Shown here: positions 9,642 through 39,049 of the stretch, one piece after another
Layout: each line of letters starts with the position of its first letter
How positions within the stretch are numbered: position 1 is the first letter of the stretch
Assembly (NCBI GenBank): GCA_029879945.1
Contig: JAOUPJ010000001.1
Span: forward strand, 1 to 39,049
DNA from: Gammaproteobacteria bacterium
GTDB taxonomy: Bacteria > Pseudomonadota > Gammaproteobacteria > S012-40
Direction of reading: 5' to 3'
DNA: 39,049 nt
Made by a program: the position numbers and the translations under genes
Notes under the pieces: generated by a model
What the model was told of the DNA's origin: nothing
Databases searched by the model: none
What the model saw: the letters and a program-made list of their open reading frames with translations, nothing else

Positions 9642-9755
9642 GGTGAGTGTCTCGTTATTTGTTTCAAGAAGAAGAGTGTTGCGCGTCACGTGCCAGTCTA
9701 CTCCAGAGGGGGAACGCAGGGCGATTTTACTCCTAAAATTTGCTAAGAGCATCTA

Positions 9756-9896
9756 GGAATTTTTGAATAAGTTCATCAAGCATGTGCTGACGAGGCAAAA
9801 ATTTCGAAGAAGCGGAGTTTACATGGGGTAAATGAGCATTCTGAGAAATATTTTTAACGTAGTCAGCGCTGCTTCAGGGGCTTATTCAAAGGTTCC
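9756..9896. repeat. 141-bp imperfect palindrome (MITE/ERIC-like element or structured RNA)
   Basis: Arms GGAATTTTTGAATAAG (9756-9771) and CTTATTCAAAGGTTCC (9881-9896) pair at 14 of 16 positions. Inner blocks AAGCA, GCTGAC and AAAAAT also pair. Apex is TTTAC-ATGGG-GTAAA (9818-9832). Confidence 0.6.
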
Positions 9897-9977
9897 ATAA
9901 AAAAATTTCGCTTGCTATTTTCCCCCTTTGGCTCAATGATTGCCGCCTAATTGGGTCGTCAAAAGGAGCCCCCTTAC

Positions 9978-11462
9978 TTGCCAAACATCACCGTTATTAT
10001 CGATAACCATAAGGATTGGAACGCCTATTATCCCAGCAAAGATGTCGTCCTCATTGATGACTACCTGGCCGCTCAGGATGTGATAGAACGCGGTAGCATG
10101 ATTATAAACCTGTGTCGAAATTATAAGTACCTTTCCCATGGCTACTACTGCTCCCTCTTGGCAGAATCCAGAAGACAAAAGGTCATTCCGTCTATTCGAA
10201 CAATCAATGATCTGAGTAAAAAGCCCCTATACGCCGAGAACCTGGAGACCCTGAACGAGGCCTTGAACCGTACCACCCGTAAACAGGAGCTGGGGGAGAT
10301 GGCCCGGATCAAGATCAGATTCTTTTTTGGTCAATCCGAACACGAGTTGCTACAGGAATTTGGCAGACAGGTCTTTGAGGCCTTCCCCTGCCCTATACTG
10401 GAAGTGGAGTTTTTGAAAAACCAGGTATGGGCCGTTGTTTCCATACGACCGGTCGGATTAAACGAGCTAGAAGAAAGGGAAGAGGATCAGTTTGCCAACG
10501 CTATCGACCTGTTTAGCAAAAAGATCTGGCGCAAACCCAAAGGTCCAAAAAAGTTTCGTTACGATATGGCCATACTGGTCAATCCGGACGAAGCGCTGCC
10601 TCCGTCCAATAAGGGGGCACTGAAAAACTTTGTCTCCGTGGGTAAGGAACTGGGCGTGAATGTGGAACTGATTGGTAGACGTGATCTGGCCAAACTCGCC
10701 GAATACGATGCCCTGTTTATACGTGAGACCACCGCCACCAATGACCACACCTATCAATTTGCCAAAAAGGCCGAATCCGAGCATATGGTGGTTATCGATG
10801 ACCCGGATTCCATTTTGCGCTGTACCAATAAAGTGTTTCTGGCCAACCTCTTGTCCAGTCGAAAGATTGCGACGCCACGCACGGCCGTATTGTCGCGTCA
10901 CCATCGCAAACAGGTCATTGAGCAGTGCAAACCCTTGGGGTTTCCCATTGTGCTAAAAATTCCCGATGGTTCCTTCTCGCGGGGGATCGTCAAAATTGAA
11001 ACCGAACAGGAACTGGAAAAAGAGGCCAACAACTTTTTCAAGAACTCGGCACTGATTCTTGCGCAAGAATATTGTTATACCGACTACGACTGGCGGGTGG
11101 GTATTCTAAACGGCAAGGCACTCTACGCCTGCCAATACTTTATGAGTAAAGGCCACTGGCAAATCTACAACCACAAAAACAATGGTAAGGTACAGGCCGG
11201 CAATTCAGCCACAGTACCCATTCATGCTGTTCCCAAAGATGTTATCAAAACCGCACTGGATGCGGCCAATCTCATTGGGAACGGCTTGTATGGCGTAGAC
11301 CTGAAAAAGACTGCAGAAAAGACCATTGTGATTGAAGTAAATGACAATCCCAATATCGATGCGGGCGTTGAAGATGCTGTAATGGGCGAAGAACTCTATA
11401 TACGCATCATGAGCGAGTTCATTCGCAGGATGGAGAACAAGCGTTTGGGCTTGGCGAGTTAG
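9978..11462 (+). CDS. RimK-family ATP-grasp ligase with an N-terminal RLAN-like domain
   Basis: ATP-grasp core (FPIVLKIPDGSFSRGI..., DWRVGILNGKALYACQYFM, YGVDLKK...VIEVNDNPNID). TTG 9978 has AAGGAG (9963-9968) 9 nt upstream. The track start is TTG 9951. Confidence 0.8.
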   Translation: MPNITVIIDNHKDWNAYYPSKDVVLIDDYLAAQDVIERGSMIINLCRNYKYLSHGYYCSLLAESRRQKVIPSIRTINDLSKKPLYAENLETLNEALNRTTRKQELGEMARIKIRFFFGQSEHELLQEFGRQVFEAFPCPILEVEFLKNQVWAVVSIRPVGLNELEEREEDQFANAIDLFSKKIWRKPKGPKKFRYDMAILVNPDEALPPSNKGALKNFVSVGKELGVNVELIGRRDLAKLAEYDALFIRETTATNDHTYQFAKKAESEHMVVIDDPDSILRCTNKVFLANLLSSRKIATPRTAVLSRHHRKQVIEQCKPLGFPIVLKIPDGSFSRGIVKIETEQELEKEANNFFKNSALILAQEYCYTDYDWRVGILNGKALYACQYFMSKGHWQIYNHKNNGKVQAGNSATVPIHAVPKDVIKTALDAANLIGNGLYGVDLKKTAEKTIVIEVNDNPNIDAGVEDAVMGEELYIRIMSEFIRRMENKRLGLAS

Positions 11463-12178
11463 TTCTCGATTACCTCAAACTCACAGACCTGATAAAAATC
11501 CGAGAACACTTCTGTTTTGGAACGCAGCTGCACCAGTTTACCGTGTGCGGCTGCGGCGTCGTTGAGTAATGCGATGAGATCGTTTTGCCAAAAACTTTCT
11601 AAAAAGGGTTCCAGCTTAGTTAATACCTTTCGGCTGAGATTGAAGCGTGTTAAAAAACTTCGTGTCGGTTTGTTATTGTATTCCGCACACAGAACCCGTC
11701 CACCCACCGGCACCACACGCATTGCTTCAGACAACGCTCGCCTTCTCGCGTCTTCCGGTAGTTCATGCAACAGAAAAAAGATAAGCAATGTGGAAATAGA
11801 GTTGCTTTGAATCGCCAGTTGTTCCGCGTTCATGCGCAAGAGAAGCATGCGCTCTTTGTTACCTACTTTTTCAAACGCTTTTTTGAGTTGTATATCGGCC
11901 ACGTCTACCAGGTGTAAGGGGCGTGGGGAAAGGTGTTGGACGAGATCCGGAATCAAGGTTCCGTAGGCACTGGTCAGCATGAGGACTCGTCCTTGCGGGA
12001 TAGACTCAAACTTTTCCAGTGTGAGCCTTTTTAATTTTTCATAGTTTCCAAACAGGATGAGATTGATAATCCAGGGATGATCGAAAAACCAGACGGCTGG
12101 GGGCCAGAGATAGGCCCACCAGTAGTGGCGGACGAGATAGTGGGGTATTCCTTTGGAATTTTTTTTATATATATTCAA
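11459..12178 (-). CDS. rquA: Class I methyltransferase-fold protein, RquA-like (rhodoquinone biosynthesis), tentative
   Basis: 239 aa, TTG start. HYLVRHYWWAYLWPPAVWFFDHPWIINLILFGNY, a degenerate SAM motif I (VLMLTSAYG rather than DxGxGxG), and FFLLHELPEDARRRAL. These match my recollection of RquA. The stop overlaps the rimK-like stop by 4 nt. Confidence 0.55.
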   Translation of the reverse strand: MNIYKKNSKGIPHYLVRHYWWAYLWPPAVWFFDHPWIINLILFGNYEKLKRLTLEKFESIPQGRVLMLTSAYGTLIPDLVQHLSPRPLHLVDVADIQLKKAFEKVGNKERMLLLRMNAEQLAIQSNSISTLLIFFLLHELPEDARRRALSEAMRVVPVGGRVLCAEYNNKPTRSFLTRFNLSRKVLTKLEPFLESFWQNDLIALLNDAAAAHGKLVQLRSKTEVFSDFYQVCEFEVIEN

Positions 12179-12228
12179 TTAAAACGTTTTAGATATATGG
12201 TTTAGGATCGTTGGGCTTCACCCTTTCG

Positions 12229-12372
12229 GGGTATTTATGCCCTTCAGGGTATTTATGCCCTTCAGGGTATTTATGCCCTTCAGGGTATTTATGCCCTTCA
12301 GGGTATTTATGCCCTTCAGGGTATTTATGCCCTTAGGGTATTCATGCCCTTAGGGTATTCATGCCCTTAGGG
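12229..12372. repeat. Tandem array of eight 17/18-nt hairpin-forming units
   Basis: Five copies of GGGTATTTATGCCCTTCA, one of GGGTATTTATGCCCTTA and two of GGGTATTCATGCCCTTA. There are no spacers. The array lies between the asnO-like stop (12419) and the rquA-like start (12178). Confidence 0.92.
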
Positions 12373-12418
12373 TGCAAGCGGCTTTGCCTCAGCACCAAGC
12401 TACAATTTCAGCACCACG

Positions 12419-14188
12419 CTACAACTGTCGTTGCAGCCAAAACTCCAGCAAGGCCATATGCCATAGCTTGCTGCCCTGGATTCGTGTATGGTGCTGCTCC
12501 GGTTCTTTTAACAAGAGGTCCACATAGTCTCGATTGTATAGACCCCGTTCTTTACATGCCTGCGAGTTAAGTATGTCACGCATGAAATCCAGAAACTCAC
12601 CTCGAACATATTTCAGGGCCGGCATGGGAAAATAGCCTTTTGGTCTATCAATGACACCGGCCGGTAAAAGCGGACGGGAAATCTCTTTCAAGATATGCTT
12701 TCCTTCCGAACCCAGTTTATATTCCTTGGGCATTTGCGCCGCCAGTTCCACCAACTCATGATCGAGAAAGGGAACGCGCGCCTCCAGGCCCCAGGCCATG
12801 GTCATATTGTCCACCCGTTTCACCGGATCGTCCACGATAAGATTACACACATCGGCACGAAAGACCTTGTCCATGAACTCGTCAGCATCTTTTTCATCAA
12901 ACCAGGACTGGACCAGTTCGCTGGTATAGTCTCCACTCATGTATTCAGAGGTGATCATGCGTGCATACTCTTCATGATCTCGATCAAAGTAGTTGGAAGC
13001 GAAGCGATCCAATTCACTGCCTTGTGCCTTATCCATGCGTGGATACCAGAAGTACCCGCCGAAGACCTCGTCCGCCCCCTGTCCACTCTGTACCACTTTG
13101 ACTTGCTTGGAGACTTGTTCCGATAACAAATAAAATGCAACCGCATCCTGACCAAACATGGGTTCCGACATGGCGTCCACCGCCTCGGGTAGACGGGTCA
13201 ATACCTGCGAGTTGGGGATATAGATCTTTTCGTGTCGCGTGTTGTAACGCGCCACCACCTGATCTGAGAATTCGAATTCACTACCCTGCTCTTGTCCTAT
13301 GTCCTCAAAGCCAATAGAAAAGGTGCGCAGGTCTTTTACACCCGCTTCCATGAGTAAGGCGACAAGCAGACTGGAATCCAGTCCACCTGAGAGCAAAACA
13401 CCTACCGGCACGTCTGCCACTTCGATACGCTTTTTCACTGCCGCCATCAGTGCACCGTGTATGGCCTCACGCCACTCTTGTTCGCTCTTCTTTTCCACGG
13501 GGCGTGTGGCTTTCAATCGCCAATACTTTTGAATCCATGTTTTACCATTAGATGAAATCATCATGGTATGGGCAGGCGGCAGTTTGCGCACACCCTTGAA
13601 AATTGTTCGCGGCGCGGGCACTACTCCGTGCAAAGTGAATTGATTGTGCAAGGCCTGGGTATCAATAGAAGTATCGATATCACCCATTTTCAGCAGCGCC
13701 TGCACATTGGAGGCAAAACGTATGCGCTTGTCGTCCAATGCATAATACATGGGCTTAATACCAAAGCGATCACGGGCCAGAAACACAGATTGTTGTTTTC
13801 TATCCCAGAGCGCAAAGGCAAACATGCCGGTAAGACGCTCTACGCATCCCAGCCCCCAATGGGCATAGGCCTTGAGTATTACTTCCGTATCACCGTGGGA
13901 GAAAAATTCGTAACCCAGATCGATCAACTGGGCGCGCAGTTCCCGGTAGTTATAAATGGCTCCGTTGAACACCAGGGCCAGTCCCAGCTTTTCATCTACC
14001 ATGGGTTGATTGGCCTGATCGCTCAGATCGATCACCGATAGACGTCTGTGCCCAAAGGCCAGCGGACCCTCCAGCCAATGGCCACCACTATCGGGCCCAC
14101 GCCGCTCCAGCGCGGTCATGGCGGAGAGGACATTTTTTAGTACTGGCTGAGTACCGTCAAAGCGGAATTCTCCAACGAGTCCACACAT
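12419..14188 (-). CDS. Asparagine synthase-family glutamine amidotransferase (589 aa), possibly AsnO / N-acetylglutaminylglutamine amidotransferase-like
   Basis: Starts MCGLVGEF (Cys2 nucleophile). PP-loop SGGLDSS. VDDPVKRVDNMTMAWGLEARVPFLD. GGAGG about 12 nt upstream. Confidence 0.88.
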   Translation of the reverse strand: MCGLVGEFRFDGTQPVLKNVLSAMTALERRGPDSGGHWLEGPLAFGHRRLSVIDLSDQANQPMVDEKLGLALVFNGAIYNYRELRAQLIDLGYEFFSHGDTEVILKAYAHWGLGCVERLTGMFAFALWDRKQQSVFLARDRFGIKPMYYALDDKRIRFASNVQALLKMGDIDTSIDTQALHNQFTLHGVVPAPRTIFKGVRKLPPAHTMMISSNGKTWIQKYWRLKATRPVEKKSEQEWREAIHGALMAAVKKRIEVADVPVGVLLSGGLDSSLLVALLMEAGVKDLRTFSIGFEDIGQEQGSEFEFSDQVVARYNTRHEKIYIPNSQVLTRLPEAVDAMSEPMFGQDAVAFYLLSEQVSKQVKVVQSGQGADEVFGGYFWYPRMDKAQGSELDRFASNYFDRDHEEYARMITSEYMSGDYTSELVQSWFDEKDADEFMDKVFRADVCNLIVDDPVKRVDNMTMAWGLEARVPFLDHELVELAAQMPKEYKLGSEGKHILKEISRPLLPAGVIDRPKGYFPMPALKYVRGEFLDFMRDILNSQACKERGLYNRDYVDLLLKEPEQHHTRIQGSKLWHMALLEFWLQRQL

Positions 14189-26571: not shown

Positions 26572-26695
26572 TGACTGTGTCGCAAGATTCGTCCTCAAAC
26601 GAAAAACAGTCACCCATCCACTGATCGAGTCGGTGGAAGTTTTAATGCGTTCCCGGTGCAAGGAGGACGCACTCAATACTACAAAGAGGTTTTTT

Positions 26696-28744
26696 ATGTG
26701 CGGTATAGCGGGCGTTTTGAACGTCGATCCACAGTTTTCCGTTGATCCCCAACTTCTGGTCAACATGGCGGCTATCCAATACCACCGTGGTCCCGATGGA
26801 TTTGGCTACCGTACCCTAGACGATCGCGGAATCGGTTTCGCCCATGCGCGTCTGTCCATTATTGATCTGGACGAGAATCGGGGCCGCCAACCTTTCGTCT
26901 CTCAGGACCAGCAGCTCCTGCTCACCCACAATGGTGAGTTCTATGACTACAAACGACTCCGCGCCGACCTTAGTTCACGCGGCGAACGTTTTAGCAGTAA
27001 GAGTGATTCGGAAATAGTGCTGCATTTGTACCCACGCCTTGGTCTCGAAGACATGCTTCCTTATTTGCGTGGTGAATTCGCCTTTGCCTTATATGATAAA
27101 AGAAAAGACAAGCTGATCCTGGTACGGGACCGCTTTGGTATCAAGCCTCTGTACTGGACCCAGGTCAACGGTAGCTTTGTTTTTGGTTCCGAAATAAAGG
27201 TTCTGTTTGCTCATCCCAAGGTGCCGCGAAAAATCAGCGACACGGGCCTATACCACCAACTCATGCAAACCATTGCGCCCGGCACAACCCCTTTCGAAAA
27301 CATTCACCAGGTCGCACCCGGGCATGCACTCATCGTTGAACGCGTCCATGGAAAATTTAGAATCACAAGCCAAAAATATTGGGACATGGATTTTCCACTG
27401 CACTCGGAAAGAAAAGAGAAAGAAGACCAATACTATATAGAAGGCGTGCGCGAAAAACTGCTGGAGGCCGTACAACACCGACTGGAAGCCGATGTACCCG
27501 TGGCCTGCTACTTATCCGGCGGTATCGATTCCTGCTCCATACTGGGGCTATCCTCCGCCTCACAACAGTCTCCGGTGAAGGCATTCACCATCGGTTTTGA
27601 CGATGCCGATTATGACGAGACCGCTATTGCGAAAGAAATGGCTGCCGCCACCGGGGCAGACCAGGACATCATGATGCTTAACGCCAGGCATTTATACGAC
27701 AATTTTGCGCGCACCATCTGGCATACAGAACGCTCCATCTACAACACACTGGGCGTGGCCAAACTATTGATGAGTCAACATGTGAACCGGGCGGGATATC
27801 GTGTGGTCGTTACCGGCGAGGGCTCAGACGAATTGTTCTCAGGCTACCCCTCTTTCAGACGTGACATGTTCCTCTACGGTATGGACCATCTCAATGCCAG
27901 TGAGCGCGTCGCCTGGGAACAGATGCTGGCGGAAAGCAACAAACTATTCAAGGGTGCCATGCTCGCCGAAGAAGCCTGGGCCGATCCATTTCTGGATAAG
28001 ACACTGGGCTTCACCCCCAGTTGTCTGCAGCCCTGGCTCGCCAGCAGTCAACATGTCCTGGGTATCGTCGACGCAGGTCGTGCTAAAAACCTGAAAGACT
28101 ACCAAGCCGGCCAGGCCATCGCCGATGCGCTGGATGTAGATATGCTTGCCGAACGTCACCCCCTGGACAAGGCCCAGTACGTGTGGATCAAAACTCAATT
28201 GGAAGGACAGATTCTCACTTGGGGAGGGGATCGTGTGGACATGGCCAATTCCATGGAGGCCCGTCCTGCCTTTCTGGATCACCACCTGGCCGAGTTCGCT
28301 ACACAACTGCCCCCGAGCATGCGCATACGGGGTCGCGTTGAAAAATTCGTATTGCGCGAGGCCATGAAGGGTCTGCTGCCTACGGTTTTGTACGAACGGG
28401 AAAAATTCGCCTTCATGGCTCCCCCCGCCCACACCGATCCTGAAAAATGGCAAGCCATGAAAGGTCTGGCTGATCGATATCTCTCTCCGGCCGCTATCAA
28501 CGATGCGGGCTTGCTCAGCGAGAATGGGGTGAATGCGCTATTCGCCCTGCACGAAAACCCGAACACATCCGCCGCCACTCAGGTACAATTGGATGCAGTT
28601 ATCAATCACATGCTCAGCGTTCAAATGATGCATGAAAAATTTATTGCTGCAGACCTGCCTAGACTGGCTCAAGAGCAAGCAGTAAAACTGGGCTGGAGCG
28701 TTACATCGGTCCCCGAAAATGAAAGAGATTATTCAAGACACTAG
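26696..28744 (+). CDS. Asparagine synthase (glutamine-hydrolysing) family amidotransferase, 682 aa
   Basis: AAGAGG RBS, then MCGIAGVL (the Cys2 nucleophile fixes the start). PP-loop YLSGGIDSCS. The track ORF starts 63 nt further upstream. Confidence 0.9.
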   Translation: MCGIAGVLNVDPQFSVDPQLLVNMAAIQYHRGPDGFGYRTLDDRGIGFAHARLSIIDLDENRGRQPFVSQDQQLLLTHNGEFYDYKRLRADLSSRGERFSSKSDSEIVLHLYPRLGLEDMLPYLRGEFAFALYDKRKDKLILVRDRFGIKPLYWTQVNGSFVFGSEIKVLFAHPKVPRKISDTGLYHQLMQTIAPGTTPFENIHQVAPGHALIVERVHGKFRITSQKYWDMDFPLHSERKEKEDQYYIEGVREKLLEAVQHRLEADVPVACYLSGGIDSCSILGLSSASQQSPVKAFTIGFDDADYDETAIAKEMAAATGADQDIMMLNARHLYDNFARTIWHTERSIYNTLGVAKLLMSQHVNRAGYRVVVTGEGSDELFSGYPSFRRDMFLYGMDHLNASERVAWEQMLAESNKLFKGAMLAEEAWADPFLDKTLGFTPSCLQPWLASSQHVLGIVDAGRAKNLKDYQAGQAIADALDVDMLAERHPLDKAQYVWIKTQLEGQILTWGGDRVDMANSMEARPAFLDHHLAEFATQLPPSMRIRGRVEKFVLREAMKGLLPTVLYEREKFAFMAPPAHTDPEKWQAMKGLADRYLSPAAINDAGLLSENGVNALFALHENPNTSAATQVQLDAVINHMLSVQMMHEKFIAADLPRLAQEQAVKLGWSVTSVPENERDYSRH

Positions 28745-29240
28745 CGCCACACTGGTTAAAAAGGGCGCCACAAAAAGCGAAAGGGATGAGCTGGCCAAAG
28801 CGGTGCTACAAAACCTGCGCGTAGTGGTGCGCACCACTCAAGCCCATTCACGCTGGATAGAAAAGAGTTCGGGCATCACAGGTGCCCAACTGTGGGCCCT
28901 GTGGGAGCTATTCGCGCAGCCGGGGCAAAAGGTGTCAGACTTGTCCCGTGCCCTGTCCATACATCAATCCACCGCCAGCAATATGCTGGATAAGCTCGAG
29001 GAACGAGGACTGATTCGTCGTGATCGCAGCGGGCCCGACCAGCGGGTCGTTCAATTATTTCTCACCCGTGAAGGCACCGATCTGCTTTCAGATGCACCAC
29101 GCCCGGCTCAGGGTGCCATTATGGACGCGCTGAAGTCCATGTCTAACGGAGACCTGCTCAATCTGAATCAGGGTCTCAACAGTTTGCTCGACCATATGCA
29201 AGTGTGGGAAAAAAATGCAGCCTTGAACCCCTTGAGCTAG
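28719..29240 (+). CDS. MarR-family transcriptional regulator
   Basis: 173 aa. Winged HTH (GITGAQLWALWELFAQPGQKVSDLSRALSIHQSTASNMLDKLEERGLIRRDR). Overlaps the asnB-like 3' end by 26 nt. Confidence 0.85.
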   Translation: MKEIIQDTSATLVKKGATKSERDELAKAVLQNLRVVVRTTQAHSRWIEKSSGITGAQLWALWELFAQPGQKVSDLSRALSIHQSTASNMLDKLEERGLIRRDRSGPDQRVVQLFLTREGTDLLSDAPRPAQGAIMDALKSMSNGDLLNLNQGLNSLLDHMQVWEKNAALNPLS

Positions 29241-30093: not shown

Positions 30094-31173
30094 TCATCCC
30101 TTTGAATCGGGCTGCATGGCCTTTCTGAACAGGTGGGGCACCAAAAGATGCAGCGGCATCCGCATATAATGTGATCGAACAAATAGACACCAACGGGCAA
30201 ACCCGCTGAATCCGTCATCACAACTTTGATGATCGGGGCGCAGAACGCGTCGATATAAAAAATCCATCGCTGACTTGCGCAACCCTACTCCCGAGGCGCC
30301 ACGCAATGCATCCAGGGTGTCCTGTGGTATTTGCGAGTCCAGAACCTGTCTACAATAGTGTAATGCATAAAAAGTAGGCAGACTCAGGTCCAATGTGGCA
30401 GCCCGTGCAGTGAGTTTTTGCCAAAATTGCGCGTCGCGCCCACTGAACTCGTCCAACAAATATTTTAAATCGAACAAATCCCGTAGCGCATTTTCAAACT
30501 CGCCCTCGTGGAACAGATGCGTGGCACTGTGGATGATCCTATCCAATGGGGAAAGTGCATAGATATTACGCTGCGCATCCAGGCAAACCGCATCGGCCAG
30601 GAGGCGCTTCGGGTCAGGATGAAAGCGCGCCGTATCGGGCAGTATGCTGTGGTGCACATCCAGGCTGCTTTTGCGCGTGATGTGTCGCAATGGCGGTAAC
30701 TCATGCATCCACTTGCGATAGTAACGTTGATCGTAGGAATCCATGATTCCCGTTATCCAGCCGTAGTTGCGCAGGGTCAGTTCCACTTTACTGATCAATT
30801 CCCTGGGAACCAGAATATCCACATCATTGAAGACACGCTGCCGACCGGCATCCAGCCCTGCAATATGGTAGGCGCTCCCTTTCAATAAAACCAAGGGGAC
30901 ATCAATGCGCGACAAGGCCTTGCTCAAGGCGTGAACCTCCCAGTCCACCGTTTGTCTTTGCTTGGCAGCGACGGTATCGGCAGAAAGTAGATGGGCCTTG
31001 GACTGTTCAGGGACCGCGTCCCAAACGCCATTTTCCCTACACACCAGAGACAATCTGGCCATGAGTCGAGCCTGCCTAGCCTGGCGTATGAGCAAGTCCC
31101 ATTGATTCAGCGACAGTGAGGGAACCCTCTCCTTCGGGTGCAGCAGACAATCGACCAGCAACGGCGTTTGCAT
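30094..31173 (-). CDS. Nucleotidyltransferase family protein (NTP_transf_5-like)
   Basis: LLKGSAYHIAGLDAGRQRVFNDVDILVPRE. ATG 31173 overlaps the upstream stop by 1 nt (TGATG). Confidence 0.78.
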   Translation of the reverse strand: MQTPLLVDCLLHPKERVPSLSLNQWDLLIRQARQARLMARLSLVCRENGVWDAVPEQSKAHLLSADTVAAKQRQTVDWEVHALSKALSRIDVPLVLLKGSAYHIAGLDAGRQRVFNDVDILVPRELISKVELTLRNYGWITGIMDSYDQRYYRKWMHELPPLRHITRKSSLDVHHSILPDTARFHPDPKRLLADAVCLDAQRNIYALSPLDRIIHSATHLFHEGEFENALRDLFDLKYLLDEFSGRDAQFWQKLTARAATLDLSLPTFYALHYCRQVLDSQIPQDTLDALRGASGVGLRKSAMDFLYRRVLRPDHQSCDDGFSGFARWCLFVRSHYMRMPLHLLVPHLFRKAMQPDSKG

Positions 31174-32069
31174 CAAACCTTCCCCTCAAAGAGTTGATCA
31201 AACACCTTTACCGCGTCATCCAGGCGACTATAGCTGAAACGGTAGCAGTGACATCGGTCCATCAGGTCTGCTGTCATATCATAGGCAGTAGCCCCTAATA
31301 CGCTGTAATTAAAAGCATTTAAGGCCACCTCCATGAACATATCCCCTTTGTCCATATCGATGAGCGTGGCCGCCGCCTCAGGCACATACTTGGGCAGAAC
31401 CACCCATGTGGGCATGGCGGTCTGCTCCTGCAGCGTGATCATCTCATGGGGTACTTTAAGGTGGGCGACGGTGCCCTTGGCCGTGTCATGGGCAATGGGG
31501 CCAATTTCTGCGGCCGCATCATAGTTGCGAATGATGTCGATGGACTGATTCTTCAAACTCACCGGGCGCGGTACTGGATGAATGAGCCCGGTCTGCGGAT
31601 TGATCATGCACAACTCATCCGATAGCAATCGCCATCCTCGATGGATCAGCCCGGCGCAGAGCGTACTCTTTCCTGAGCCCGGAGGCGCCGGCAGAATCAC
31701 CGCCTTATTGTCACGGGCAATGACGGCGGCATGGAAAATCAGATATTGGTTACTGTGTTGGGCAAAACACCAGTTCAGTCCCCATTCAAAAAAGGCAAAG
31801 GCCTGCGAATAGGGCAAGGGTTTAAAGGGTTGGCGTCCATCGAAATAAAACAGCGCCTGGGGATGATACCAACGACGCAGGCCACCGGGGGCCTTGATGG
31901 CGACGTGGAAGTCGATGAAATCTTGCGCATCGAGTGATGGGTAATCTCGATAGAGCTGCTCCATTCCGAGCAACACGGTTTTGAGCTGAGATTGTACGGA
32001 AACGGAAAAGGGACCTATACGTATTTTCAGTCCCTCGTTCTGCAGTTCGGTGGAGAGCCTTGAATTCAT
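31173..32069 (-). CDS. HprK-related kinase A-type P-loop protein
   Basis: 298 aa. HAAVIARDNKAVILPAPPGSGKSTLCAGLIHRGWRLLSDE resembles the HPr kinase C-terminal fold and P-loop. Its start overlaps the PqqD-like stop by 1 nt. Confidence 0.82.
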   Translation of the reverse strand: MNSRLSTELQNEGLKIRIGPFSVSVQSQLKTVLLGMEQLYRDYPSLDAQDFIDFHVAIKAPGGLRRWYHPQALFYFDGRQPFKPLPYSQAFAFFEWGLNWCFAQHSNQYLIFHAAVIARDNKAVILPAPPGSGKSTLCAGLIHRGWRLLSDELCMINPQTGLIHPVPRPVSLKNQSIDIIRNYDAAAEIGPIAHDTAKGTVAHLKVPHEMITLQEQTAMPTWVVLPKYVPEAAATLIDMDKGDMFMEVALNAFNYSVLGATAYDMTADLMDRCHCYRFSYSRLDDAVKVFDQLFEGKV

Positions 32070-32350
32070 CAGCCCTCTACCTTTTCAATAATGCTCAGCC
32101 TGAGGAGTTCCTTGAGAAAGATTTCGATCAATTCCCGCACTTCCTCGTCGATCGATTCCATCCCCTGCTGCTGCAGGAAGGCGCAGATATCCTCCACACT
32201 CATGGCCTGGTTCTGTAGCTGTTCCAGAATACTGATGTAGGGCTGTTTGAAAAGGTGCGTGTCTCCCGTACCGTGGTGATAGCAGACACAACTGTCTCCC
32301 CAGCAGCGCCAGCTCAGTTTGACTTGTTCCGGGACACGCCAAGTCTCCAC
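32069..32350 (-). CDS. PqqD-family peptide chaperone (HPr-rel-A system type)
   Basis: 93 aa. GTG start with GGAG 8 nt upstream. WRCWGDSCVCYHHGTGDTHLF..., then a winged-helix-like remainder. Confidence 0.78.
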   Translation of the reverse strand: METWRVPEQVKLSWRCWGDSCVCYHHGTGDTHLFKQPYISILEQLQNQAMSVEDICAFLQQQGMESIDEEVRELIEIFLKELLRLSIIEKVEG

Positions 32351-32447
32351 AACACACTCCAGGATGGGTTTTGAGTGAGAATGATTATCTCATGAAAACA
32401 AGAACATGGATAAAGGTATATGGGATTTTATCGGCGAGTGGGGGAAG

Positions 32448-32475
32448 AAATGGAGGGACATACACCCCTCCATTT
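32448..32475 (-). promoter_or_regulatory. Intercistronic stem-loop directly after the P1 stop (partial terminator or RNA-stability element)
   Basis: Perfect 10-bp stem AAATGGAGGG (32448-32457) / CCCTCCATTT (32466-32475) with an 8-nt loop, starting 5 nt after the TAA at 32480-32482. No U-tract follows on the minus strand. Confidence 0.5.
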
Positions 32476-32479
32476 AGAT

Positions 32480-33148
32480 TTAATTCAGAGGACAGTATTG
32501 ATTGTTGAGAAAATCCAGGGAGTTTTTGGCCTCTTCCATCAACTCAAGATTACAGCTTTCCCAGGCGTTCTGGAAACTGGCAATCACTTCTTCAACCGTG
32601 AGGTCAAAGCTGACAGTAGTCGCCGCATTTTGCAGCGCTGCTACAGAGTGAAAACCCAGCTGTCTCAACATGCTGTGGTAGTTCGACCCCTTATGATGGC
32701 CACCGTTATGATGATCACCATCGTTATCGTAGTCGAAACTGCAGCCTGCGGGTGGCTCTCCGCGAATGCCATCGTCGTCTTCAACGCTCACGATTTCGAG
32801 TAAAGTTCTGCCAGGAAAGGCGGATGTTTGGAAAACGGTGTCAAATAGAGCCTCAGGAGGAAGCATTGAATGCCAGCTGTCCAGGTGAGTCTTCCAGTAG
32901 CCGGGAGAACACCCTTCGCCACCACATTTTTCATCCTCATCCTGGTGTGAGAGATTTCCAGAGAGTTGTCCAGAAAGTGTACATTTATTCGCCCAGGCTG
33001 GCTTGTTGGCAAGCGTCATCACAACCGGTGCTGCAAGCAGGCTGGACTTGGCAAATCTTCTTTTCGACAGGTCTACTTTCTCAGTGGCCTGTTCTTTTGT
33101 TACTTCATTTTCTCTCTTAGACTCAGAAAACTTATTATCATCAGTCAT
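32480..33148 (-). CDS. P1: exported hypothetical protein with a twin-arginine-like signal and six conserved Cys; family not recognised
   Basis: 222 aa. LSKRRFAKSSLLAAPVVMTLANKPAWA/NKCTLSGQLSGNLSH, CGGEGCS, PPAGC, SC, CPL. Paralogue of the gene at 34999-35634. Confidence 0.8.
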   Translation of the reverse strand: MTDDNKFSESKRENEVTKEQATEKVDLSKRRFAKSSLLAAPVVMTLANKPAWANKCTLSGQLSGNLSHQDEDEKCGGEGCSPGYWKTHLDSWHSMLPPEALFDTVFQTSAFPGRTLLEIVSVEDDDGIRGEPPAGCSFDYDNDGDHHNGGHHKGSNYHSMLRQLGFHSVAALQNAATTVSFDLTVEEVIASFQNAWESCNLELMEEAKNSLDFLNNQYCPLN

Positions 33149-33697
33149 TTTATAACCTACTAAAGCAATGGACGTCTAATGCGGGATCTTCCCTGGTTCC
33201 CAACGAATAGCATCCATGCCGGATATGGTCTAAAACGCGATCAAATCCTTTCGTGGCGTATATATAATCAGATTCTTATTATTGTTGTAATATTCTGTTC
33301 CATTATACCCTATAAAACATACCAAGATAAAGGTTAACGGGTAATTTTTGTTCGAATTAATCGAATCCCCGACTCTCCCCCTTCCGCGAGGGGCGGCGCC
33401 AAACAGCGATTGGGTTTCATCTTATTTATATTATCTATCAACTGGTTACGGTTAAGCGGGAGGACCATGAACTGTCGCAACCACGGTGACGGGATTCCAT
33501 AATGAGTTAATCCCACTATCAAACACAAAAGCAGGCTTGTGCCCAAATGACTGCGTCCTTACACTAGCACTACAAAGGTGACTCTCCAGTGCCGAAATCA
33601 CACTAACGAAACCAGGCTTGGCAAAACCTGCTCAGCGTGTCCCACACTGAGACCGGGTGTCACAAAACACAATTTAAATAGTTGGCTCACCGACAAA

Positions 33698-34927
33698 ATG
33701 ACTTCAAATAAAACTGCATACATTGTTTTTGCCTGCGGCCTGTATGGTCTTTTTCTCGTCTATGGAACACTCTTTCCCATACTCAACTTTGCCTGGCAGC
33801 CGGAAAACTTCAAAGTTTTGTTCACAAATCTGAACACTGTTCAGATAACAAAGCCCGACCTCATAACTAATCTAATTGTGTACATCCCTCTGGGATTTCT
33901 TATCGCCAGTCTGCTCGTAAAAGACAGGCCTTTTGTCATCTACACGCTACTCGCCACATGTGCCGGATGTGTGCTGAGCCTGTCGCTGGAATTATTGCAG
34001 ACCCAATTACCGGGGCGAGTCCCTTCACTTTTGGATTTGCTTTTGAATACAGTGGGCGCTGGCCTGGGTGGGGCAATCTTCAGCCTGATGAAACACGCAG
34101 GTTCTGGCCAAATTGTCCTGTTTAACAGAATCCTTTCCATTACCAACAAAGATCTGCACGCCAAACTGGCGGCAAGCTGCATTGGAGTATGGATCGCATC
34201 CCAAACCGCACCCTTTGCCCCATCCATTGATGTAGGACTTCTTTGGAGTAGTGTGAAACCGGTATGGCTGACGCTTAATAGTCTTGACACCTTCCAGTGG
34301 ATGAAGCTCGTGGAATACCTCTGCGCTTTCATAATCATTGCGTTACTGCTGGAATATCTCCTCAACGCCAAAGGAAAACATACGCAGATTTTTCTCGCAC
34401 TCTTGCTGCTTACCGTGCTATTGAAAATCATTGTCGTAAGCCGCGTCGTATCACTGGAAATGTTGCTTGCGCTGCTTTGTGCCCTGACCTACCCTCTGCT
34501 GAAACGTTTCCTTTCCCCTGAGATTCGTCCCCATGCATTGGTACTCTTAACGATAATCTATATTCTTGCAGACCAACTCAAACCCGGGAGCGCCGCCACA
34601 TTCAATTCCATTAACTGGATACCCTTTAGTGGACAGATGAGTAGTCTTTCCGGTTTCATCGATATACTGGAGACCGCCTGGCCCTTCACAGTGATTGCAC
34701 TGGCCAACATCCTGGCCCTTAACAAATCACCAAGTTCGGTACTACCCTGGAAGGAGCTTTTTTCAGTGGTGTTTCTGGCCTTTGGGGTGGAATGGGCACA
34801 ACAGTACACGCCGGGGCGTTTTCCGGACGTGACGGATGTGTTTATCGCAGTACTGGGCTGGTTTGCGCTGCACTACCTGGCGCGGTATTTACACCTGGGC
34901 AGTACACAAAAGAGCTTGAGTGACTAG
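33698..34927 (+). CDS. Polytopic membrane protein with VanZ-like motifs at both termini
   Basis: Start at ATG 33698 gives 409 aa, matching the 410-aa paralogue. LIVYIPLGF...LELLQTQLPGRVPSLLDLLLNTVGAGLGG, and near the C-terminus GVEWAQQYTPGRFPDVTDVFIAVLGW. Confidence 0.8.
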   Translation: MTSNKTAYIVFACGLYGLFLVYGTLFPILNFAWQPENFKVLFTNLNTVQITKPDLITNLIVYIPLGFLIASLLVKDRPFVIYTLLATCAGCVLSLSLELLQTQLPGRVPSLLDLLLNTVGAGLGGAIFSLMKHAGSGQIVLFNRILSITNKDLHAKLAASCIGVWIASQTAPFAPSIDVGLLWSSVKPVWLTLNSLDTFQWMKLVEYLCAFIIIALLLEYLLNAKGKHTQIFLALLLLTVLLKIIVVSRVVSLEMLLALLCALTYPLLKRFLSPEIRPHALVLLTIIYILADQLKPGSAATFNSINWIPFSGQMSSLSGFIDILETAWPFTVIALANILALNKSPSSVLPWKELFSVVFLAFGVEWAQQYTPGRFPDVTDVFIAVLGWFALHYLARYLHLGSTQKSLSD

Positions 34928-34998
34928 AACAAAAACCTGGCAATGACAGTCCGGCTGGTGCCGAGCACTACTACACCAAAAGTGTCACTATCCCCAAA

Positions 34999-35634
34999 CT
35001 AGGCGGCCCCGCCCAAGGGACAAAGCTGACTATTCAATTGATCCAGGGTAGTCGCAGCCGCCTTCATCACTTCCGGATCACAACTGTGATAGGCATTGCG
35101 GAAGTTTGAAATAACTTGTTCAACTGTGAGATCAAAGTTCACGGGTGTGGCCGCATTTTGTAGCGCAGCCACTGATTGCACCGCCAGGTATCGAAGCGTG
35201 TGCTGATACGCGTGGGCTTCAGTTGAACTCACTAAAGCACAACCGGCAGGTGGCTCTCCCCGCACATTGGGATCATTACTCAAACCCAGGGTTTGCAGTA
35301 AGCTAAGCCCGGGAAAGGCTTCCACCTGAAAGACTGTATCAAACAGTGCTTCCGGCGGTATTTGCGCATGCCATTGGTCAGTATTCAATTGCCAAAAACT
35401 GGTGGAACACCCCTCGCCACCGCAGGGCTCGTCGCCATGATGAGATAGATTCCCGGAAAGCTGGCCAGAAAGCGTGCACTTCCCTGCCCATGCTGGCTTG
35501 TTTGCGAGGGTCAATACCACAGGAGCAAGCACCAGTGCAGATTTTGTGAGTCGGCGCCTGGACTGGTCCACCTGGCGGTTTGCTGAGTCTAAACGGGAAA
35601 CATCCAAATTTTCCTGGCTATCCTTTTCCTTCAT
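34999..35634 (-). CDS. P2: paralogue of P1 (exported, twin-arginine-like signal, six Cys)
   Basis: 211 aa. QSRRRLTKSALVLAPVVLTLANKPAWA/GKCTLSGQLSGNLSH. The same six Cys positions as P1. Confidence 0.8.
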   Translation of the reverse strand: MKEKDSQENLDVSRLDSANRQVDQSRRRLTKSALVLAPVVLTLANKPAWAGKCTLSGQLSGNLSHHGDEPCGGEGCSTSFWQLNTDQWHAQIPPEALFDTVFQVEAFPGLSLLQTLGLSNDPNVRGEPPAGCALVSSTEAHAYQHTLRYLAVQSVAALQNAATPVNFDLTVEQVISNFRNAYHSCDPEVMKAAATTLDQLNSQLCPLGGAA

Positions 35635-35734
35635 TTTCCATCCTGGATTAGAAATTATTAATTTGTGAATCGATTAAATCAGTAGTGACCTGCCGTATTT
35701 TATAATTTTCGGACCTACTTGTCTCATTGACTAA

Positions 35735-35749
35735 GCAAACTGAAAGCCA
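35735..35749 (-). promoter_or_regulatory. Sigma-54-like -24/-12 element upstream of P2
   Basis: Minus strand reads TGGCTT-TCAGT-TTGCT with correct GG-N10-GC spacing. It matches 9 of 12 conserved positions of TGGCACG-N4-TTGCW and lies about 100 nt upstream of ATG 35634. Confidence 0.35.
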
Positions 35750-36052
35750 ATAAGTAACTGTATGTTTTTATTGATAAAATAATCGATAAAAAAGACAAAA
35801 TCAGAATTGTGTAAGCAATAACGACAATCGAAATTAGCCGCGGCACAGAACAAAAATATAATTTATTTTTTTATTCAATAAGTTAAAGTATTCTTCGAAG
35901 AGATTTGCTCACAAAATGATCATGAAGCACATGTAAGATTCATCGACATCTACTTCATGTAAGCCCTTACAACGAGGCCCCAAAATTGCGTGTTTTGCTG
36001 GATTTCCTTTTTAAGTTAGTGAAAATATGGAATTTATCTACACAAGCCCGGG

Positions 36053-36058
36053 TATAAT
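36053..36058 (+). promoter_or_regulatory. Perfect TATAAT -10 box upstream of the second VanZ-like gene
   Basis: TATAAT lies 45 nt upstream of ATG 36103. The -35 region is weak (GAATTT). Confidence 0.3.
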
Positions 36059-36102
36059 AAGTTCAAACTCGAAACCCTTAGAGATTCCCTGAGACTTCTG
36101 CA

Positions 36103-37335
36103 ATGTATCAGGCCAGATCACAGCGCCATTTCCTGCTGCCCTTGCTCACAGTTGCATATATGCTGCTTTTGGCCTATGCCAGCCTGTTTCCGCTTAGCGG
36201 ATGGCAAATCCCCGTCTATGAAAACTGGCTGGATGCCTATGAAGTTCGAAACCGATATATTACCCGCACCGATCTAACGACCAACTTTCTGGTCTATATC
36301 CCTTTGGGATTACTGGCCTACATCTGGCTCCGTTCCCACTATCACTGGAAGGTAGCCGGGATCATCGTTCTGCTTACGAGTCTCGCTCTAAGCTTCACGC
36401 TGGAGTCACTTCAGCTTTTTATTCCCTCCAGGGTCCCCTCTTTTGTAGACCTAGTAATGAACATACTGGGAGCTGCGGTAGGCATCGCTATCGCGCACAC
36501 CTTTAGTGAACATACAAATCTGGGGCAGCGATTTCAGTTTCTTCGACACCGTTGGATAAAACCCGGACATCTTGCCAATATGGGGCTGGTGATACTTGGT
36601 CTTTGGGCAATCTCGGAACTGAGTCCAATTATCCCTTCACTGGAAGCGGCACACATCAAAAAGCAACTGATTCCACTATCATTGGTGCTAGAGCAACCTG
36701 AGCTTCTAAAACCTAAACTTTTCTTTATTGCTGTTTTACAACTCTCAGCGCTCCTGTATCTGGCCACCACCGTTTTCAAAGATAGTTCTCGGGCAATTCG
36801 CAGTTTTTTCTGGTTCTGTGTCCTAATCTATCTGTACAAACTTACCGTTGTTAATCGCTTATTACTGCCCGAGTCTATCTTGGCCGTTCCCATTGCCATT
36901 TCGTTGGTGCACATTACAAAAAACTTCTCCAAACAAGCCATCGTCTTTGCCATCTATTTTTGCATTATTGTCGCCTATTCACTAGGCCAGCTCGGCACTC
37001 TGAGCAGCCAGGCCGGCTATTTTCGGGAAATGAACTGGATTCCTTTTTACAGCTATATCGCCAGCGTCAGGCAATTTACGGAAATAGCCACCACGAGTTG
37101 GGAATTTTTATTGCTTGCCTACGCGTTTATCTACTTGCAGGCCAGAAACAGTCTGCTCGTGATGATGCTGGGATTATTCGGTATAGCCGCATTCACCCTG
37201 ACCCTGGAAGTGGGACAACAATACATCGTGGGTGCAAAACCGGATATTACAAACGTATTGCTCGCCACACTGGCCTGGCTACTCCCCTGGTTACACCCCT
37301 TGATCCGCAGAAGACACTCCCTGAATTCTTTATAG
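36103..37335 (+). CDS. Polytopic membrane protein with VanZ-like motifs at both termini (paralogue of 33698-34927)
   Basis: 410 aa. FLVYIPLGL...LESLQLFIPSRVPSFVDLVMNILGAAVG, and LEVGQQYIVGAKPDITNVLLATLAW. Confidence 0.8.
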   Translation: MYQARSQRHFLLPLLTVAYMLLLAYASLFPLSGWQIPVYENWLDAYEVRNRYITRTDLTTNFLVYIPLGLLAYIWLRSHYHWKVAGIIVLLTSLALSFTLESLQLFIPSRVPSFVDLVMNILGAAVGIAIAHTFSEHTNLGQRFQFLRHRWIKPGHLANMGLVILGLWAISELSPIIPSLEAAHIKKQLIPLSLVLEQPELLKPKLFFIAVLQLSALLYLATTVFKDSSRAIRSFFWFCVLIYLYKLTVVNRLLLPESILAVPIAISLVHITKNFSKQAIVFAIYFCIIVAYSLGQLGTLSSQAGYFREMNWIPFYSYIASVRQFTEIATTSWEFLLLAYAFIYLQARNSLLVMMLGLFGIAAFTLTLEVGQQYIVGAKPDITNVLLATLAWLLPWLHPLIRRRHSLNSL

Positions 37336-37568: not shown

Positions 37569-39049
37569 ATGACTGCGCTTCTACATAATCTACTCATCGA
37601 TACTGCCGAGCGAACTCCCGCTGCGACCGCCTTGCGTCACAAGAAAGAAACCGTGAGCTATGAAACTCTGGCGCAAGATATTCACTCTGCTGCTGCGGGT
37701 TTGATACACCTGGGACTGGAGCGCAATGAACGCGTGGGCATTTACCTGCCCAAATCGTTTTCCACTGTCACCGCCTTTTTTGCTGCTACCTGCGCCGGAG
37801 GCGTATTTGTACCAATAAATCCGGTACTCAAATCACCCCAAGTCCAGCACATACTCCAGGACTGTAATATTCGGGTATTGATCACTTCAGCCGATCGATT
37901 GAAGCTTTTAAGCTCGGCACTTGCACACTGCCACGATCTAAACACCGTTGTTTTGCTGGAAAGTACAATCCCTGAACTGGAAGACAAACCCCATTATCGA
38001 ATTGTATGCTGGGACGAGTTCCGTGATGCTAGCACCTCGACTACTCCTATAAACAGAATAGACCGGGACATGGCTGGTATTTTCTATACCTCCGGTTCCA
38101 CAGGTAAACCCAAGGGCGTAGTGCTATCCCATTTGAATATGGTGGCAGGAGCCCATAGTGTGGCGCGATACCTGGAAAATACCGCAAATGACCGCTTGCT
38201 TGCCGTGCTGCCCTTTAGTTTTGACTACGGCTTCTCGCAGCTATCCACTGCCTTTTCTGTGGGGGCTTCAGTAACACTATTGGACTACCTCCTACCCAGA
38301 GATGTGGTAAAAGTAGTTCAAAAAGATCAGATTACAGGTCTGGCAGCCGTTCCTCCTCTGTGGATTAAATTGAGTGAGTTGGACTGGCCCGAGGAGACCA
38401 GTGAGCATCTGCGTTATATCACCAATTCCGGTGGTGCCATGCCTCAGGCAACACTGGCTGAATTACGCAAACAGCTGCCCAAGACACGTCCCTATCTCAT
38501 GTATGGCCTCACCGAAGCCTTTCGTTCCACCTATTTGCCACCTGAGGAAATCGATAAACGACCTGGCTCCATGGGGAAAGCCATACCCAATGCAGAAGTG
38601 ATGGTGGTACGCGCAGACGGCACAGAGTGCGCGCCCGGCGAACCGGGTGAACTGGTACATCGTGGCTCACTTGTGTCCATGGGATACTGGAACGATCCGG
38701 AGAAGACGGCGATTCGATTCAAGCCCGCACCCAACAGCGAATCGGGTATTCAGCTCACTGAAATGGCGGTGTGGTCCGGAGATACCGTTAAAAAAGATGA
38801 AGACGGTTTTCTCTATTTTGTAGGCCGAACCGATGAGATGATCAAGACCTCAGGCTACCGCGTCAGTCCCACGGAAATTGAGGAAGAGATCTATAAAACA
38901 GGACTGGTCTCCGAGGTAATCGCCCTGGGTATTCCTCACCCGGAATTGGGACAGGCCATCGTATTGATTGTGGTACCCCTGGAGGACAGCTCTTTTGATG
39001 AAAACGAGCTGACTACACACTGCAAAAAAAATCTACCCAACTTCATGGT
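37569..39049 (+). CDS. AMP-forming acyl-CoA ligase (adenylate-forming enzyme), resembling the exosortase A system-associated type. 3' end runs off the right edge
   Basis: Not in the ORF track because it is edge-truncated. Hand translation from ATG 37569 (first start after an in-frame TGA at 37530) stays open to the edge: MTALLHNLLIDTAERTPAATALRHK..., IFYTSGSTGKPKGVVLSH, MYGLTEAF, GRTDEMIKTSGYRVSPTEIE. Confidence 0.88.
   Translation, partial: MTALLHNLLIDTAERTPAATALRHKKETVSYETLAQDIHSAAAGLIHLGLERNERVGIYLPKSFSTVTAFFAATCAGGVFVPINPVLKSPQVQHILQDCNIRVLITSADRLKLLSSALAHCHDLNTVVLLESTIPELEDKPHYRIVCWDEFRDASTSTTPINRIDRDMAGIFYTSGSTGKPKGVVLSHLNMVAGAHSVARYLENTANDRLLAVLPFSFDYGFSQLSTAFSVGASVTLLDYLLPRDVVKVVQKDQITGLAAVPPLWIKLSELDWPEETSEHLRYITNSGGAMPQATLAELRKQLPKTRPYLMYGLTEAFRSTYLPPEEIDKRPGSMGKAIPNAEVMVVRADGTECAPGEPGELVHRGSLVSMGYWNDPEKTAIRFKPAPNSESGIQLTEMAVWSGDTVKKDEDGFLYFVGRTDEMIKTSGYRVSPTEIEEEIYKTGLVSEVIALGIPHPELGQAIVLIVVPLEDSSFDENELTTHCKKNLPNFM

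Follow-up and report, generated by a model that had tools for sequence, protein, structure and literature searches.

The window analysed here is a 39,049-nt stretch of contig JAOUPJ010000001.1 from a metagenome-assembled gammaproteobacterial genome (assembly GCA_029879945.1). Its minus strand carries a four-gene cassette, in which a gene that we call P1 is followed by genes for a PqqD-family protein, an HprK-related kinase A and a nucleotidyltransferase of the NTP_transf_5 type. A paralogue of P1, named P2, stands alone in the same region (Table 1). The kinase and the PqqD protein constitute a named but orphan system, the HPr-rel-A system of NCBIfam. We found that the HPr-rel-A cassette has a conserved fourth gene, which encodes the P family, and we propose, with a probability of about 0.55, that the cassette enzymes act on P1, and in trans on P2, as their protein substrate.

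A preliminary description of this DNA had given the positions of seven open reading frames (ORFs), their motifs, the GTG start of the PqqD-like ORF with its GGAG sequence, a 129-nt spacer between P1 and the PqqD gene, and TGATG overlaps between the enzyme genes. All of this held for all seven ORFs. The GGAG lies 6 nt upstream of the GTG as read from the sequence, the PqqD stop codon overlaps the ATG of the kinase gene by 1 nt, and the kinase stop codon overlaps the ATG of the nucleotidyltransferase gene (31173) in the same way, the ORF listing for the latter beginning at TTG 31176. The proposed enzyme identities were borne out by the hidden Markov model (HMM) search, as the cut-offs of TIGR04352 (200 bits), TIGR04353 (35 bits) and PF14907 (31.2 bits) were all exceeded, and the kinase matched TIGR04352 over its full length (1–280 of 280). 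The kinase and the PqqD protein pass both NCBIfam equivalog cut-offs, and the locus is a member of the HPr-rel-A system. PF05402 (PqqD) was found on the PqqD orthologue of another locus (L006 in our numbering).

The system is represented by over 7,800 clusters of proteins (90% identity), with hosts mostly among the Beta- and Gammaproteobacteria. The preliminary description had stated that no substrate was identified for the HPr-rel-A pair. Our searches agree with this: NCBIfam names the kinase and PqqD and has no P-family model in its library, and literature searches on the system, the model accessions and the context retrieved no relevant paper. What is new here is the conserved fourth gene with its motifs, while the named enzyme pair was already known.

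The linkage of P with the enzyme genes is far beyond chance. The kinase scan covered one genome per GTDB species and gave at least 596 matches, of which the best 80 were kept; these loci span Beta-, Gamma- and Alphaproteobacteria and Nitrospirota. Cultured organisms with the kinase include Noviherbaspirillum denitrificans, Sulfuriferula multivorans, Roseateles toxinivorans and Massilia species. By local HMM search, a same-strand P homologue was found beside the PqqD gene in 77 of the 80 genome loci, and the three loci without P lie on contigs whose upstream sequence is shorter than 250 nt. NTP_transf_5 was present in 79 of the 80. Starting from P, all seven look-ups (six distinct proteins) had the P, PqqD, kinase and NTP_transf_5 genes in this order on one strand, and the flanking genes represented at least four unrelated contexts. 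Metagenomic P loci contained system genes in 42 of 48 cases, and the remaining six contigs were about 2 kb or shorter. The weakest homologue with context (P0077) is likewise a P-type gene with the enzymes downstream. The co-occurrence of P with HprK-A/PqqD genes that the preliminary description had called for was thus observed, and none of the comparative results that it had named as contrary was obtained. Otherwise the flanks of the cassette were variable and included the housekeeping genes prfA and prmC. Because P adjoins the enzyme trio in every adequately sampled genome, it is the likely target of the enzymes, and we consider it almost certain that P is a functional part of the HPr-rel-A system.

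The gap between P and the PqqD gene had a median of 22 nt (81 pairs) and was mostly 3–65 nt, and the PqqD, kinase and transferase genes abutted or overlapped across loci. No space remains for a small precursor ORF that might have been overlooked, and a hidden ORF of this kind between P and PqqD was rejected. Variants in gene order and copy number were seen at L105, L108, L113–L117, L119, L122–L126 and L129–L131. They include prmC followed by PqqD-kinase-nucleotidyltransferase-P, the arrangement PqqD-kinase-nucleotidyltransferase-P-kinase-nucleotidyltransferase, and two enzyme sets around one P gene (L105); the window itself has one enzyme set and two P genes. Since P stays with the enzymes in all these orders and copy numbers, the linkage outlasts rearrangement and copy-number change. 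Judged from gene content, such co-retention is the pattern that would be expected of genes for an enzyme and its substrate.

P1 and P2 are 57% identical, share six invariant Cys residues and are each other's closest relatives (54–57% identity). The preliminary description had ascribed to both a twin-arginine-like leader, six conserved Cys and no PEP-CTERM tail, and the alignment confirmed this; the C-termini read ...NNQYCPLN in P1 and ...QLCPLGGAA in P2. The leader runs SKRRFAK...NKPAWA in P1 and SRRRLTK...NKPAWA in P2. The family profile of the leader is (V/I)-D-x-S-R-R-(R/K)-(L/F)-x-K, a Gly/Ala/Ser-rich h-region and T-L-A-S-R-P-V-L-A, and the RR pair was present in 129 of 133 P homologues. 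P1 and P2 match the sequence features sought in substrates of the twin-arginine translocation (Tat) system, namely S/T-R-R-x-F-L-K, a weakly hydrophobic h-region and A-x-A, and the family profile has R/K in the c-region. On motif grounds, the leader of P appears well suited as a twin-arginine signal, its c-region containing a basic residue.

Directly behind the leader of P1 lies a Cys-bounded loop with three regularly spaced serines, and P2 has a leader and a serine loop like those of P1. Residues C56, S59, S63, G64, N65 and S67 were invariant in 70 homologues. S-x3-S-x3-S was found in 123 of 133 P homologues, and its Cys-bounded form C-x(1-4)-S-x3-S-x3-S-x(2-14)-C in 118. The distance from RR to the Cys was 26–31 residues in 97 of the 115 homologues in which it was measurable. 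In the AlphaFold2 (AF2) model of P1, built from a 70-sequence alignment, residues ~75–222 form a helical domain with a predicted local distance difference test (pLDDT) score mostly above 95, and residues 1–75 are disordered. The serine loop would be accessible, since it is predicted to be disordered. Distant members align to the family HMM over positions ~15–126 only, a stretch that covers leader and loop and extends into the beginning of the domain; therefore the N-terminal 75 residues, and not the folded domain, define the P family.

The preliminary description had not recognised the P family, and the sequence and structure-model searches in Pfam, NCBIfam and PDB gave the same answer. No Pfam or NCBIfam model matched P even at E ≤1 with six diverse members included in the test; this covers matches of any kind, including those to a Tat-signal model, although HMMER filters readily discard short models of signals. 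The profile search found no PDB relatives of P1, and the best Foldseek hit had an E value of 3.9. A word-indexed search retrieved 78 P homologues, all metagenomic or derived from metagenome-assembled genomes and none with a functional name. The exhaustive profile search yielded 2,140 proteins at E ≤1e-3, which fall into two classes. The first comprises P-type proteins of ~200 residues carrying RR and the serine motif. The second has the helical C-terminal domain alone, GC[ST]PGYWK ... VAALLNA ... CPL, without RR or the serine motif, arranged in tandem arrays or placed at the ends of large Ig/PKD/SdrD_B surface proteins; one domain-only relative (P0078) sits on a 1.3-kb contig. The helical domain, for which there is neither a Pfam model nor a PDB fold match, is a widespread extracellular module. 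Two protein families without a model are thereby defined, the P leader-plus-loop family and the GC[ST]PGYWK helical extracellular domain. The domain was also noted in P0079, P0110, P0114, P0130, P0150 and others, with about six tandem copies in one 808-aa protein and a C-terminal position in large Ig/PKD/SdrD_B proteins.

The cassette enzymes look catalytically intact, as judged from conserved residues and structure models. The Walker A motif of the kinase was invariant in 69 homologues. Its AF2 model (pLDDT 94) had ATP-dependent phosphoenolpyruvate carboxykinase (PEPCK) as the best PDB fold (E 9e-7, TMq 0.57), followed by HPr kinase/phosphorylase (HPrK/P; E 3e-4), and the kinase sequence profile also reached HPrK/P, at the P-loop. 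The nucleotidyltransferase has no sequence relative in PDB. It retains the Pol-beta-type G-S...D-x-D signature, and its K99-G100...D118-x-D120 motif and His/Asp/Glu residues were at least 93% conserved in 75 orthologues. None of the three enzymes has an N-terminal hydrophobic segment or signal peptide, and they should therefore be cytoplasmic.

As sole universally conserved partner of the RiPP (ribosomally made, post-translationally modified peptide) recognition element (RRE), the kinase and the nucleotidyltransferase, and with a leader and a disordered serine loop as its conserved part, P is most economically explained as their substrate; we put the probability of this at 0.55–0.6. In the proposed mechanism, the PqqD/RRE protein would bind the conserved twin-arginine leader of P in the cytoplasm and present the adjacent disordered loop, C-x(1-4)-S-x3-S-x3-S-...-C, to the P-loop kinase, which would phosphorylate one or more of the loop serines. 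The Pol-beta-type nucleotidyltransferase would then add a second group, onto the phosphate or another serine. This group might be a nucleotidyl or a glycosyl(-phosphate) moiety, comparable to that of phosphoglycosylated lasso peptides. The modified, pre-folded P would be exported by Tat, and signal peptidase would cut at AWA, so that the mature protein carries the modified loop at its N-terminus with the helical domain behind it. The specific site and chemistry are proposed tentatively, with less confidence than the substrate role. The product probably has its function in envelope or matrix processes of exosortase A (XrtA)/PEP-CTERM exopolysaccharide systems.

The closest known parallel is the tailoring of lasso peptides. 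In lasso pathways, an HPr-kinase homologue phosphorylates a serine of the precursor, and in the case of pseudomycoidin a nucleotidyltransferase then adds a hexose to the phosphate (PMC8498205). The tailoring sets of paeninodin and pseudomycoidin co-encode an RRE (B1/PqqD-like), an HPr-kinase-like kinase and a nucleotidyltransferase, as the cassette does. Unlike them, the cassette has no B2 protease or lasso cyclase and is hosted in proteobacterial XrtA/exopolysaccharide loci. Its candidate substrate is a protein of ~200 residues with a Tat-type leader and a folded domain, whereas lasso precursors have ~40 residues, and modification is proposed for an internal, Cys-bounded S-x3-S-x3-S loop instead of a C-terminal serine.

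Small cytoplasmic proteins that bind a twin-arginine leader and delay export until maturation is complete are known in TorD, DmsD and NapD. PqqD/RRE has an unrelated fold, its binding to the leader is a proposal of this work, and the proposed maturation would be a covalent modification by kinase and transferase instead of insertion of a redox cofactor. The cassette kinase has two distant homologues that are likewise orphan kinases of peptide-like cassettes: ScmC of the SynChlorMet system (PF27840/TIGR04249; 28.9 bits, PF27840 being a precomputed match on kinase orthologues) and HprK-related kinase B of the GAK system (HprK_rel_B, 21.3 bits). Both scores are far below the respective cut-offs, and the partner genes differ, with radical SAM/SPASM proteins for ScmC and ATP-grasp and CofD-like proteins for kinase B. 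P also differs from XrtA substrates in that it lacks a PEP-CTERM sorting signal.

Several points weigh against P as the substrate. The preliminary description had put forward P1 as a candidate substrate for modification; the linkage part of this claim now stands in both directions of comparison, and the modification is putative. The substrate role of P, its modification site and chemistry, its export through Tat and its biological function are inferences, wholly so for the chemistry. To our knowledge, no RRE binds a Tat signal peptide, and the putative assignment of P to Tat was made from the motif alone. P lacks the C-terminal serine that is the target of lasso kinases, and membership of the lasso transferase PsmN in PF14907 could not be confirmed. 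In some second enzyme sets (e.g., a kinase-nucleotidyltransferase pair) a PqqD gene was undetected. Remote kinase relatives are under-sampled, because the genome loci kept were the 80 with the highest scores among at least 596. Finally, co-transcription of P1 with the enzyme genes is putative in the window, since a hairpin and the 129-nt spacer intervene.

P might alternatively be a co-regulated periplasmic accessory with a matrix, exopolysaccharide-binding or regulatory function, with the enzymes acting on XrtA-linked polysaccharide, on PEP-CTERM proteins or on a precursor encoded elsewhere. Such a role would fit the presence of an XrtA/PEP-CTERM marker within 7 kb of 34 of the 80 genome cassettes, the predicted export of P as opposed to cytoplasmic enzymes, the lack of enzyme genes for P2, and the occurrence of the helical domain on many large surface proteins without the serine loop. 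However, about 57% of the loci have no such marker within 7 kb, and prfA and prmC are among the flanking genes; since over half of the cassettes have no XrtA genes next to them in the flanks sampled, the cassette appears to be separable as a module. Moreover, the presence of a PqqD/RRE protein points to a ligand that is a peptide or protein, P is the one gene besides the enzymes with universal conservation, and the conserved part of P is the disordered N-terminal loop and not a folded binding domain. We therefore regard an accessory role as rather improbable. Less probable still is that P carries a cofactor or prosthetic group through Tat. PqqD would then be a proofreading chaperone of the TorD/DmsD/NapD kind, which holds the signal peptide until the kinase and the nucleotidyltransferase have made and attached a phosphodiester-linked prosthetic group. 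CitX/MdcG provide a precedent for the loading of a serine by an enzyme of the nucleotidyltransferase fold, with phosphoribosyl-dephospho-CoA being attached to a serine of the citrate lyase acyl carrier protein. The canonical S-R-R-x-F-x-K with a basic c-region residue, the cytoplasmic enzymes, the confidently predicted fold of the P domain and the conserved Cys, His and Trp in C-x-G-x-SPGYWK-x-H would all agree with a carrier. Yet it is the serine loop that is conserved family-wide and not the helical domain, which has no likeness to any known cofactor-binding fold. This explanation overlaps strongly with P as a substrate for leader-guided modification, and differs from it mainly in the attached group and the role of PqqD.

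A cryptic lasso-peptide cluster, with an AsnB-like protein (26633–28744) as cyclase and an unannotated small precursor as substrate, was effectively refuted. The B1-like PqqD, the HPr-kinase-like kinase and the nucleotidyltransferase do correspond to the tailoring set of some lasso clusters, and the gene for this Asn-synthase homologue lies 1.3 kb from the cassette end. It is, however, on the opposite strand behind MarR and cytochrome c genes, and a homologue was found at one other locus (L067) of more than 80. The protein scored 203 bits against the lasso cyclase model NF033535 (cut-off 525), while it passed the glutamine-hydrolysing asn_synth_AEB model (423 against 267 bits) and keeps the N-terminal MCGIAG nucleophile. 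No B2 leader peptidase (transglutaminase-like) was present among the scanned ORFs of the window or the recurrent neighbours, and a small ORF would not fit into the cassettes.

The finding fits best under RRE-guided tailoring, with a Tat-signal-bearing folded protein as candidate substrate and a defined candidate site. HprK-related kinase A and PqqD occur in at least 596 species-representative genomes, often beside exosortase/PEP-CTERM biofilm loci, and a universally linked, motif-bearing P gives this orphan system a concrete candidate substrate and site. An annotation label thereby becomes testable by mass spectrometry with few constructs. If the proposal is true, RRE-guided (RiPP-type) chemistry extends from small peptides to a folded, exported protein and is mechanistically tied to Tat export, and the poorly understood XrtA matrix machinery gains a new post-translational modification. 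A more far-reaching and doubtful version would be a new class of leader-guided modification, in which the Tat signal doubles as a RiPP-style leader. An RRE would keep hold of this leader while a kinase of the PEPCK/HPrK fold and a Pol-beta nucleotidyltransferase assemble a phosphodiester-linked group, which could be a phosphoglycan or a nucleotide, on the Cys-bounded S-x3-S-x3-S loop; phosphorylation followed by elimination could instead lead to thioether cross-links with the flanking Cys residues. The leader would be removed on export. The product, an envelope protein in modified form, would then prime, anchor or organise XrtA-dependent exopolysaccharide.

Table 1. Positions of the cassette, the P genes and neighbouring features in the window.
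Feature	Position	Strand	Basis
NTP_transf_5 nucleotidyltransferase, last cassette gene	30094..31173	-	PF14907, E 2.5e-46, 158.7 bits
HprK-related kinase A	31173..32069	-	P-loop PAPPGSGKST; TIGR04352, 405.8 bits
HPr-rel-A PqqD-family (RRE-type) peptide chaperone	32069..32350	-	TIGR04353, 51.8 bits
Hairpin, 5 nt past the P1 stop	32448..32475	-	10 pairs in scan, 11 in fold, weak U-tract
P1, first cassette gene, candidate substrate, 222 aa	32480-33148	-	ORF list, P profile
P1 Cys-bounded serine loop C56-TL-S59-GQL-S63-GNL-S67-...-C75, proposed modification site	32924..32983	-	Translation checked
P1 leader, residues 1-53	32990..33148	-	Variable n-region, SKRRFAK, weakly hydrophobic h-region, Lys in c-region, AWA
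VanZ1, double-VanZ membrane protein divergent from P1	33578..34927	+	PF04892, 72 bits, two stretches
P2, stand-alone P1 paralogue, 211 aa	34999-35634	-	P HMM, E 4e-74
P2 serine loop	35422-35478	-	Translation checked
VanZ2, double-VanZ membrane protein divergent from P2	36103..37335	+	PF04892, E 5.8e-15, 56.5 bits
Acyl-CoA ligase (AMP-forming), exosortase A system-associated	37569..39047, past window end	+	TIGR03098, 782.7 bits

Both P genes of the window are divergent from a gene for a double-VanZ membrane protein, and the VanZ assignment of the preliminary description was upheld for both proteins (cut-off of PF04892, 30.1 bits). VanZ1 has N- and C-terminal VanZ matches and also matches NF037970 at residues 325–427, and its true start is probably Met41, at about 33698. 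The Pfam match of VanZ2 is N-terminal, and its C-terminus aligns to the C-terminal VanZ domain of VanZ1. A tandem duplication of the two-gene module had been suggested. This stands for the arrangement and for the P genes, and does not for the membrane proteins: VanZ1 and VanZ2 are 30–31% identical and not mutual nearest relatives, VanZ2 being closest to the VanZ protein of L139 (39%) and VanZ1 to those of L034 and L138 (33%; 30–33% with L001 included).

The idea of VanZ as a dedicated membrane partner of P found no support. A double-VanZ neighbour was found at about 4 of the 80 genome loci (~5%) and at a few metagenomic loci, divergent from P where it lies upstream and sometimes with a trypsin-like protease gene between, and another VanZ homologue lies in an exopolysaccharide locus with no P nearby. 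VanZ is therefore facultative, an obligate partnership being rejected, and VanZ2-type genes head an XrtA ligase operon. The ligase gene that directly follows VanZ2 (cut-off of TIGR03098, 592 bits) places the P genes at the edge of an XrtA/PEP-CTERM locus, which the preliminary description had missed at the right-hand end of the window. The closest relatives of VanZ2, in L136 and L139, also have TIGR03098 behind them on the same strand, and in L136 the decarboxylase TIGR03099 comes next. L136 and L137, both related to the window and syntenic with it, have one P/VanZ pair each. From these neighbourhoods, VanZ looks to belong to the XrtA context rather than to P specifically. Long VanZ-matching ORFs of ~1,190–1,240 aa at L053 (1235–4795, minus strand) and L089 (1187–4909, minus strand) are either fusions of double-VanZ with another domain or artefacts of a simple ORF caller.

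Many cassettes elsewhere are flanked by PrsT, the TIGR03013 glycosyltransferase, the PEP-CTERM export protein and TIGR03016, which related XrtA/PEP-CTERM loci carry together with TIGR03099. At 23 of 86 loci a conserved, exported trypsin-like S1 protease is encoded no farther than ~2 kb from the cassette, in most cases immediately upstream of P (L005/L007, 7030–7836; L053, 4832–5602; L086, 4834–5481; 19 further loci). These proteases share 43–55% identity across lineages, have the H/D/S triad and an N-terminal signal or anchor, and may be maturation proteases. Sulfotransferase genes lie near the cassette in L005 and L007.

The P1-PqqD spacer folds with a minimum free energy of -27.8 kcal/mol (z = -2.4 against shuffles). 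Its hairpin is possibly a partial terminator or an mRNA stabiliser, and may attenuate read-through so that P1 mRNA is in excess, as is common for precursor genes. As most orthologous spacers have 3–65 nt, the hairpin is not a family feature. An Rfam scan of the 29–39 kb part of the window gave no match, and comparison of the two divergent intergenic regions revealed no convincing common repeats. Sigma-54-like sites were not enriched in the window (17 found, 25.6 expected). One such element, TGGCTTTCAGTTTGCT (35734–35749, minus strand), lies ~100 nt upstream of the P2 start and is the lone candidate there.

In the remainder of the window, the AsnB-like gene on the plus strand encodes a 703-aa amidotransferase with intact MCGIAG nucleophile, which scored 368 bits against a cut-off of 817 for the XrtA amidotransferase, and a MarR regulator gene (28719–29240) overlaps its end. 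Three further genes encode a GNAT protein with DUF3335 (peptidase C39-like; 8493–9752, minus strand), a RimK-like ATP-grasp protein with an RLAN domain (9951–11462, plus strand) and a 589-aa Asn synthase (12419–14188, minus strand); the region 8493–14188 resembles an osmolyte cluster of the N-acetylglutaminylglutamine-amide type. Near the left-hand end, the plus strand carries genes for an extracytoplasmic function (ECF)-type sigma factor (843–1469) and a fused ATP sulfurylase/adenosine 5'-phosphosulfate kinase (1854–3566) for synthesis of 3'-phosphoadenosine 5'-phosphosulfate.

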